Below are positions 13,439-14,125 of a stretch of DNA of 40,663 bases, one piece after another. Position 1 is the first letter of the stretch. Every line of letters starts with the position of its first letter. The position numbers and the translations under genes are program-made. This DNA comes from a virus. Lineage: Duplodnaviria; Heunggongvirae; Uroviricota; Caudoviricetes. The stretch lies in the IMG/VR virus record IMGVR_UViG_2874951433_000008; one strand, written 5' to 3'. The notes below the pieces were generated by a model. That model was not told where the DNA came from and searched no databases. It saw nothing but the letters and a program-made list of their open reading frames with translations.

Positions 13439-14125
13439 ATGACCTCAATAAACATATTTATGACAGTTGCTGATTTCAAACGGCCCAAATTGGAGCTCCC
13501 AAACGGGGCAAACAAACTACTACTGCACTCTTGCTGTGCTCCATGTTCCGGTGAGGTGATGGAGGCGCTTCAGGCCTCGGGAATCGACTACACCATCTTT
13601 TTCTACAACCCGAACATTCATCCTCAGAAAGAGTATTTAATTCGTAAGGATGAGAATATTCGCTTTGCTGAACAACACGGCGTGCCGTTTATTGATGCTG
13701 ATTACGACACAGACAACTGGTTTGAACGAGCCAAAGGAATGGAATGGGAGCCCGAACGAGGGATCCGTTGCACCATGTGTTTTGACATGCGTTTTGAGCG
13801 GACAGCGCTGTACGCCGCTGAAAATGGTTTCAGTGTGATCAGCAGTTCACTGGGCATTTCACGCTGGAAAAATATGCAGCAGGTTAACGACTGTGGGCGG
13901 CGAGCCGTCGCGCATTATCCGGGCATGGTGTACTGGGATTATAACTGGCGCAAGCAGGGCGGCTCGTCCCGTATGATTGAAATCAGCAAGCGCGAAAAAT
14001 TCTATCAGCAGGAATATTGTGGCTGTGTGTATTCTCTGCGCGATACCAATCTACACCGCAAATCTCAGGGACGCCCTCTTATCAAAATTGGTCAACTCCA
14101 CTACGGTAAAGAAGAGAAGGAGTGA
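13439..14125 (+). CDS. QueH-like protein (DUF208, epoxyqueuosine-reductase family) encoded in the prophage nin region
   Basis: N-terminal hallmark …[11 protein letters not shown]… and further conserved cysteines (…RCTMCFD…, …EYCGCVYSL…). Confidence 0.65.

Follow-up and report, generated by a model that had tools for sequence, protein, structure and literature searches.

An intact queH gene in a decayed lambdoid prophage probably encodes a functional, cobalamin-independent epoxyqueuosine reductase

A lambdoid prophage remnant in the IMG/VR virus record IMGVR_UViG_2874951433_000008 (Duplodnaviria; Heunggongvirae; Uroviricota; Caudoviricetes) carries an intact gene of the QueH family at the start of its nin region. 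The whole stretch of DNA that was analysed, here called the window, is 40,663 nucleotides (nt) long, and the gene, queH, lies on its plus strand within the open reading frame (ORF) 13439..14125. We consider it probable that queH encodes a functional, cobalamin-independent enzyme which was captured from an Enterobacterales chromosome and circulates as a lambdoid cassette, giving its carriers B12-independent maturation of queuosine. The reduction of epoxyqueuosine (oQ) to queuosine (Q) is the last step of the pathway, after tRNA-guanine transglycosylase (TGT) and QueA (PMC5372724). In Escherichia coli and Salmonella this last step is cobamide-dependent (Frey 1988, as reported in PMC4646009); QueH is cobalamin-independent and iron-dependent (PMC11906303; PMC13443448).

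The ORF runs from an ATG to a stop codon and encodes 228 amino acids. Its product matches the Pfam profile PF02677 (QueH) with E=1.9e-65 and 220.6 bits (cut-off 23.5) over essentially the full profile (positions 1-174 of 175). In a phmmer search of the PDB it matched the Thermotoga maritima QueH structure 7lc5 (E=5e-22, residues 27-203 of the ORF product). The strength of these two matches places the observation of a QueH far beyond chance. The 11-residue QueH signature motif occupies residues 27-37 of the 228-residue product. RefSeq and UniRef already list this exact protein under the name QueH. It is 100% identical to WP_012421537.1, named 'epoxyqueuosine reductase QueH', and the exact 228-residue product is on record from Shigella flexneri strains (S. 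flexneri 5 str. 8401, ABF02971.1, and M90T).

Sequence comparison suggests that the native start codon is the second ATG, at 13460, rather than the one at 13439. PGAP starts the near-identical E. coli queH at the second ATG, which yields a protein of 221 amino acids. In L009, the most divergent allele retrieved, the first ATG is changed to ATT and an in-frame TAA lies between both ATG positions. Chromosomal QueH orthologues also align from the 13460 start. On these grounds 13460..14125 (+, 221 amino acids) was taken as queH; this coding sequence is supported by the Pfam and PDB matches, the RefSeq identity, the cysteines, the AlphaFold2 model and the substitution pattern described below. The 7-codon in-frame extension of the longest ORF (13439..13459, +), from which ABF02971.1 starts, is probably not native.

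Residue conservation was assessed in an alignment of 38 sequences, namely the queH product, T. maritima QueH and 36 mutually diverse full-length representatives. The latter were drawn from an exhaustive HMMER search of a library of 1.84 billion proteins, which returned 4754 relatives at E<=0.001. All seven family-invariant cysteines are retained in the queH product (C25, C26, C29, C104, C107, C187 and C189 in 221-residue numbering), and so are N52, R62, E99, R103, K137, Q184 and G188. The columns of these cysteines and of the other invariant residues are 97-100% conserved with T. maritima QueH included, and the same residues are invariant across 34 close homologues. The seven cysteines are equivalent to C9, C10, D13, C87, C90, C169 and C171 of the T. 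maritima enzyme. Since a cysteine stands at the Asp13 position in 37 of the 38 sequences, the CCAPC motif of the prophage protein is the family norm and the T. maritima aspartate the exception. The PDB contains C9S and D13N mutants of T. maritima QueH, which suggests that both positions are considered functionally important.

An AlphaFold2 model of the queH product was obtained with a predicted local distance difference test score (pLDDT) of 76 and a predicted template modelling score (pTM) of 0.77. In a Foldseek search with this model the five top PDB matches were all T. maritima QueH (E 3e-10 to 7e-9; template modelling (TM) scores of 0.75-0.79, normalised to the target), with a TM score of 0.79 against 7lc5. 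The next matches, TtuA/LarE-type PP-loop sulfurtransferase proteins, had E>=1e-5 and were four to five orders of magnitude worse. The predicted structure of the prophage protein has the QueH fold, an adenine-nucleotide alpha-hydrolase-like Rossmann core, as in 7LC5. The original prediction, made from the letters of the window, had assigned the ORF to the QueH family on the basis of its signature and further conserved cysteines, and had named a profile search as the way to check this. The ORF is there, the profile search returned a significant match and the cysteines are kept on alignment, so that the assignment is confirmed; the start that it took, at 13439, is probably 21 nt too far upstream.

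Beyond the E. coli/Shigella cluster, the closest named relatives are the 79-86% identical QueH proteins of Erwinia, Gibbsiella, Photorhabdus, Providencia, Proteus, Ewingella, Rahnella and Pantoea. The Providencia queH (84% identity) is set among arsC, dapE, the tRNA-acetyltransferase gene tmcA, purC and bamC, and the Erwinia gene (86% identity) lies between purL and a glrK-glrR-glnB-hmp-glyA block. The neighbourhood of one 90% relative is likewise non-phage. The near-orthologue identity to these housekeeping copies indicates that prophage queH is a recent derivative of an ordinary Enterobacterales chromosomal queH. It is also a strong argument for an unchanged reaction.

The substitution pattern among the prophage alleles shows strong purifying selection, under which queH is kept as a working protein in the phage gene pool. 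Pairwise ratios of nonsynonymous to synonymous divergence (dN/dS) were 0.025-0.076, with synonymous divergence (dS) of up to 0.46. In 20 equal-length alleles from 86 copies, 47 segregating sites were synonymous and 10 nonsynonymous (p=4e-23), and ∼79% nonsynonymous sites are expected by chance. None of the 10 nonsynonymous sites hits an invariant residue. All 85 sampled queH loci are intact and encode 221-222 amino acids. The matches found in complete E. coli genomes, described below, span at least 80% of the query in 985 of 995 cases.

The gene is part of a discrete cassette with sharp mosaic boundaries. Among otherwise different prophages homology starts at ∼13389 and stops at ∼14131, right after the stop codon. 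This delimits a unit of ∼740 bp (13389-14131) that consists of queH and a 70-nt leader. Pairwise limits of homology were 13389/13412 on the upstream side and 14129-14131 on the downstream side (L002, L007 and L009). The flanks of the cassette vary. Seven upstream and four downstream types were seen at 84 loci, in 11 combinations.

The 5' leader (13389..13459, +), delimited by these homology boundaries, is conserved in the 15 distinct upstream sequences that 85 loci provide; beyond about -70, further upstream, this conservation breaks down. It contains the sequence TGCTACACT (13417..13425, +), a candidate extended -10 element (TGnTAcAcT) that is invariant in all 85 leaders. Likewise, TGCTACAC was found upstream of queH at 85 of 85 loci, the most divergent allele included. 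A weak -35 candidate, TTCCGA (13397-13402), is located 17 nt upstream of the -10-like element and matches at 3 of 6 positions. If the conserved TGnTACACT acts as a promoter, which would allow expression in the lysogen, transcription would start only ∼6 nt before 13439, a further hint that the ATG there is not the native start codon. The initiation region (13426-13475) is A/U-rich and unstructured (-2.6 kcal/mol). Rfam searches, carried out at the gathering threshold for the whole window and at E<=1 for 13100-14800, revealed no preQ1 or other riboswitch upstream of queH; the sole nearby match was sok, downstream. There was no structure 3' of the queH stop codon, where 14120-14190 folds no better than shuffled sequence (z=-0.56). 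A GC hairpin, CCGCCC-GAAA-GGGCGG (13362-13377, +), lies just upstream of the cassette boundary in a 61-nt region of -22.1 kcal/mol (z=-3.26). It was rejected as a canonical terminator, being outside the cassette, confined to one flank type and without a U-tract.

Of 5426 complete E. coli genomes, 995 have queH at ≥90% nucleotide identity, almost all of them as a single chromosomal copy that PGAP labels 'epoxyqueuosine reductase QueH'. The carriers include E. coli B ATCC 11303, O157:H7, O111, ST131 and the avian pathogenic strain APEC O1. In IMG/VR, 189 viral contigs encode queH. In 50,697 deposited phage records the gene occurs in only one cultured phage, the temperate Escherichia phage HannyBb, where the product is called 'hypothetical'. 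The phage collection otherwise gave faecal 'Bacteriophage sp.' fragments with no annotation and very large records, probably with host DNA in them; such matches say little on genuine phages. The gene for the cobalamin-dependent enzyme, queG, was present in 5426 of the 5426 genomes and thus in every queH carrier, so that queH is accessory and adds a second enzyme for a reaction that the host already encodes. The window itself contains no host Q-pathway gene.

These data are consistent with the following course of events. A lambdoid phage lineage would have captured queH from an Enterobacterales chromosome, and the cassette of gene and leader would now circulate at the start of the nin region in mosaic E. 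coli/Shigella prophages. The iron-sulfur, cobalamin-independent QueH would be active in this host and reduce the epoxide of oQ34 to give Q34 in host tRNA-Asp, -Asn, -His and -Tyr. The cell, or the phage in lytic growth, would thereby gain a route to fully matured queuosine without external B12. The B12-independent benefit would arise because host QueG needs cobalamin, which E. coli and Shigella do not synthesize de novo. That both make oQ/Q de novo is established (PMC5372724; PMC1950534). In K-12, yjeS/queG was identified by screening knock-outs that accumulate oQ (PMC4646009), and the success of such a screen implies that K-12 is without a functional back-up enzyme. The original prediction had proposed that the gene could complement host queuosine synthesis and had suggested that the host be checked for queG or queH. 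Action on the host tRNA pathway remains the favoured role. Complementation does not, since the universal presence of queG in E. coli makes QueH redundant there, and what it would add is cobalamin independence.

The prophage that carries the cassette is 99.5% identical to one in E. coli FDAARGOS_944 (L001), which is annotated by PGAP as a complete lambdoid/Rac-like element with 49 features. PHROGs and PGAP place queH in the nin region between replication and late-regulation genes. Upstream are a Ren-like/DUF977 gene (12455-12877, +) and a phrog_1621 gene of unknown function (12935-13291, +), both identified by PHROGs and by the PGAP annotation of L001. Together (12455..13291) they are the last genes of the replication-region block and represent one of the seven upstream flank types. 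Directly downstream is a complete hok/sok-type type I toxin-antitoxin module (14183..14508), the commonest downstream neighbour (66 of 84 loci). It comprises sok RNA (14183-14358, +; Rfam RF01794, 117 bits) and mok/hok (14296-14508, +; phrog_251, MokW-like), with hokD at 14353-14508 and HokD 100% identical to its E. coli counterpart. Then follow NinB-like and DUF1364 genes, a Q-like antiterminator gene, four tRNAs and the lysis genes. In annotated examples elsewhere queH follows a DUF977/Ren-like gene, and the next feature is hok/sok, a Dcm methyltransferase with an NgoMIV-type restriction enzyme, or a DUF1971 gene. In E. coli O157:H7 strain Z1768 (L008 7872-9882), a DNA cytosine methyltransferase gene and one for an NgoMIV-family restriction endonuclease come directly after queH, so that in some phages defence cargo occupies the neighbouring slot.

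The tRNA cluster (16714..17023, +; ARAGORN, PGAP and Rfam) has the anticodons CAU (Ile according to PGAP), UCU (Arg), UGU (Thr) and UCC (Gly). These are rare-codon tRNAs, located between the Q-like antiterminator and the lysis genes, and none of the four has a GUN anticodon. The link between queH and the downstream phage tRNAs that the original prediction had drawn is therefore not upheld. Its description of the locus was correct as to the nin-region location, and it had recognised neither the existing RefSeq annotation of QueH nor the decay of the prophage. Compared to the FDAARGOS_944 counterpart, defects fall in 10409-12440, 17702-19157, 22658-24371 and 25882-28621. Frameshifts disrupt ydaT and the O-like replication gene, the latter near 11502-11512, and an in-frame stop codon interrupts ydaV at 12033-12035. 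Insertion sequence (IS) elements split the holin gene, a lysis gene and the large terminase gene. Similarity to the intact prophage stops at 33648, just past the capsid gene, and the tail genes of the intact prophage have no counterpart in the window. Although replication, lysis and terminase genes are lost, queH is intact, and so is the cI-like repressor gene.

Several observations weigh against a QueH that supplies its carriers with B12-independent queuosine. No NCBIfam model matches the queH product, and PHROGs assigns it to phrog_3217 (E=1.7e-138), a family labelled 'unknown function', the profile of which begins at an internal Met and is thus without the CCAPC motif. A consensus sigma-70 scan of 12800-15100 found no plus-strand promoter upstream of queH, with counts not above shuffled sequence, and the scan of this interval for intrinsic terminators found none after the gene. 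The initiation region has no Shine-Dalgarno sequence. With the cI-like repressor intact, queH could go unexpressed in the lysogen, its action being limited to the time after induction. Furthermore, queG was counted in E. coli genomes, whereas the host of the window is Shigella. We know of no phenotype that tells oQ-tRNA from Q-tRNA, and the selective benefit is conjectural. The cultured temperate phage HannyBb, which carries the cassette, counts in favour of this reading.

The timing of QueH action is at issue in a closely related explanation, in which queH is transcribed only in the delayed-early pR operon after induction or infection and tops up queuosine for the translation of late proteins, with no benefit to the lysogen. 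The enzyme would be the same; what differs is when it acts and who profits, and this explanation is compatible with the one favoured here. As an account of the gene we regard it as rather unlikely. It agrees with the position of queH, which is co-oriented with and inside the early-right operon between the replication genes and the Q antiterminator, without a flanking consensus promoter or terminator. That a viable phage, HannyBb, carries the gene also fits, and purifying selection would suit a lytic role equally well. However, the prophage is unable to replicate, lyse or package and yet its queH is intact, with a product 100% identical to that in RefSeq, which argues against a purely lytic function, although the decay may be recent. 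The invariant extended -10-like element in a leader that travels with queH points in the same direction. In addition, tRNA would turn over slowly on the timescale of a lytic cycle, with most of it modified beforehand.

The remaining explanations are all much less probable. Captured by illegitimate recombination, queH might be a useless passenger that hitch-hikes in the nin region, a region which tolerates dispensable cargo in lambdoid phages; the host already has queG, and a phenotype is not known. We consider this very improbable in view of the strong purifying selection across alleles that have diverged to a dS of 0.46, the intactness of 85 of 85 sampled copies, and the maintenance of the cassette as a unit across seven upstream and four downstream flank types. 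Moreover, queH is intact while neighbouring phage genes have frameshifts and stops. The pseudogene or passenger reading was rejected on the basis of dN/dS and intactness. Even less credit is given to a QueH scaffold repurposed for another substrate, for example in superinfection exclusion or counter-defence. Elsewhere the same nin slot does carry defence or exclusion cargo (the Ren-like gene, hok/sok, and the Dcm methyltransferase with the NgoMIV-type enzyme in O157:H7), and QueC-family proteins repurposed in anti-phage systems have been described (PMC13329287). However, no PADLOC model matches QueH at E<=0.01, the neighbours gave only noise-level matches on the Ren-like gene, and the variable flanks hold no conserved partner gene. 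Near-orthology to housekeeping QueH with all catalytic residues kept leaves little room for a change of substrate. Least probable of all is a role in phage DNA or nucleotide modification, which the original prediction had offered as its second option and in which the substrate of QueH would be a 7-deazaguanine-type base of phage DNA or of a nucleotide pool, and not tRNA. Phages do use preQ0-pathway genes for DNA modification (PMC6884629). Against this stands the lack of DpdA/TGT, FolE, QueD, QueE or QueC, none of which is annotated in the near-identical prophage or was found in the scanned ORFs outside it or in IS insertions. QueA makes oQ on tRNA-bound preQ1 and the phage is without QueA. The 84-86% identity to housekeeping QueH of the tRNA pathway also argues against it, and Hutinet et al. 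2019 found no QueA, QueG or QueH in the deazaguanine-DNA phages that they analysed (PMC6884629).

As a gene queH is ordinary, and it is of mild interest only because of its prophage location. The QueH family, its reaction, structure and annotation are already known, so phage carriage is an under-reported detail and not a new kind of system. In the searchable literature we found no paper that discusses prophage-borne QueH; apparent matches turned out to be author names or gene lists and were discarded. The cassette is an exception to the statement of a published survey that viruses have no queuosine-specific enzymes (PMC6884629), and the labels 'unknown function' and 'hypothetical' in phage resources (PHROG 3217; HannyBb) are correctable. 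With a functional QueH, prophages bring E. coli and Shigella a second epoxyqueuosine reductase, independent of B12, as part of an accessory genome that varies between strains. Q/oQ phenotypes of K-12 and results on queG knock-outs or B12 dependence may thus not transfer to queH+ strains such as E. coli B ATCC 11303, O157:H7, ST131 and S. flexneri.

A further step would be to regard prophage queH as a true gene of lysogenic conversion that is expressed from an extended -10 promoter of its own and frees the last queuosine step from cobalamin in ∼18% of E. coli strains and in Shigella. We put this forward tentatively, as a possibility that is itself doubtful. If the B12-sparing benefit is real, cofactor independence of a tRNA modification would join the traits known from lysogenic conversion. 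Where B12 is scarce, for example in minimal media or in the cytosol of host cells, carriers would then hold Q and not oQ, and this could affect NAY-codon decoding, stress phenotypes and the translation of Shigella virulence genes. The last effect is suggested by the existing link between VirF expression and the tgt/queuosine pathway in Shigella (PMC1950534), which lends the Shigella context of the window some mild interest. QueH would in that case be the first documented queuosine-specific tRNA-maturation enzyme supplied by a phage.

The window has further features outside the queH cassette. At positions 1-1587 (+) it encodes an IpaH-type effector with leucine-rich repeats and a NEL E3-ubiquitin-ligase domain (E=1.9e-75). 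From this gene and the exact QueH match to S. flexneri strains, the window is taken as a Shigella chromosomal 'ipaH island' beside a prophage remnant. The IS load is very high (2450-3606, 4619-5775, 7636-8909, 17835-18964, 19726-22345, 22885-23724, 26596-27869, 33692-34821 and 37786-38088). It includes repeated IS3-family ORF pairs (100 plus 263/272 amino acids), two IS2-like pairs (136 plus 301 amino acids), an IS66-family element and another rve-domain transposase. C4 antisense RNA (RF01695, 75.7 bits) and isrK (RF01394, 61.5 bits) were detected at 6898-7086 (-) beside a Rha-family regulator gene (6289-7137); the arrangement resembles an antisense control module of the P1/P7 immI type, here within a lambdoid prophage. 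A DedA-family membrane-protein gene (24460-24972, -), 100% identical to its E. coli counterpart, lies between lysis and terminase genes and is apparently further cargo. The segment 34883-37409 contains a Mu-like transposase ORF (DDE_2, E=1e-134) that ends within the C-terminal domain and an opposite-strand ORF with HTH_Tnp_Mu_1. It is a remnant of a second, transposable prophage, located between the lambdoid remnant and host dcuC and pagP. The chromosomal neighbours differ between the two near-identical prophages, with dcuC/pagP in the window (38129-40663) and modABC/ybhA in FDAARGOS_944 (L001 1-3276), which implies an IS-mediated rearrangement or a different insertion history.

In its organization the queH cassette resembles lambdoid morons and nin-region cargo such as hok/sok, restriction-modification systems and methyltransferases, which are likewise discrete cassettes at a permissive slot between replication genes and Q and are retained in defective prophages. 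An autonomous promoter and a terminator define morons, whereas the queH cassette offers no more than a conserved motif of the extended -10 type and lacks a terminator. Phage 7-deazaguanine DNA-modification clusters (DpdA with FolE, QueD, QueE and QueC) also borrow genes of the queuosine/archaeosine pathway (PMC6884629). These clusters encode early preQ0 steps and a DNA transglycosylase; of the pathway this prophage encodes the last, tRNA-specific step alone, and it has no transglycosylase. T. maritima QueH (7LC5, 7LC7 and 9DEU) belongs to the same Pfam family and has the same fold at ∼30% identity, and its Cys9, Cys10, Cys87, Cys90, Cys169 and Cys171 are all conserved in the prophage protein. 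With Asp13 in place of Cys29 the crystallised enzyme is the outlier, and the prophage protein has ∼20 extra residues at each of its N- and C-termini.

The closest counterparts are the chromosomal QueH proteins of Enterobacterales (Erwinia sp. P7711, Providencia spp., Gibbsiella, Photorhabdus and Proteus), with 79-86% amino acid identity to prophage QueH over the full length of ∼214-222 residues. They share the CCAPC...RCxxC...CGC residues and the C-terminal tail, and presumably catalyze the same reaction. Their genes sit in housekeeping neighbourhoods, whereas the prophage gene forms a 740-bp cassette in a genus whose core genome uses QueG. E. coli QueG (YjeS) and QueH are both Fe-S enzymes for the same Enzyme Commission (EC) reaction, oQ34-tRNA to Q34-tRNA (PMC4646009; PMC5372724). 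They are not homologous; QueG is cobalamin-dependent and part of the E. coli core genome, whereas QueH is cobalamin-independent and accessory. In Staphylococcus aureus QueG and QueH are both chromosomal and form a redundant pair of last-step enzymes. Acinetobacter baylyi reportedly has both enzymes as well. The S. aureus pair was interpreted as an adjustment to cofactor availability (PMC13443448); in the lambdoid cassette described here the second enzyme is prophage-borne and varies from strain to strain.

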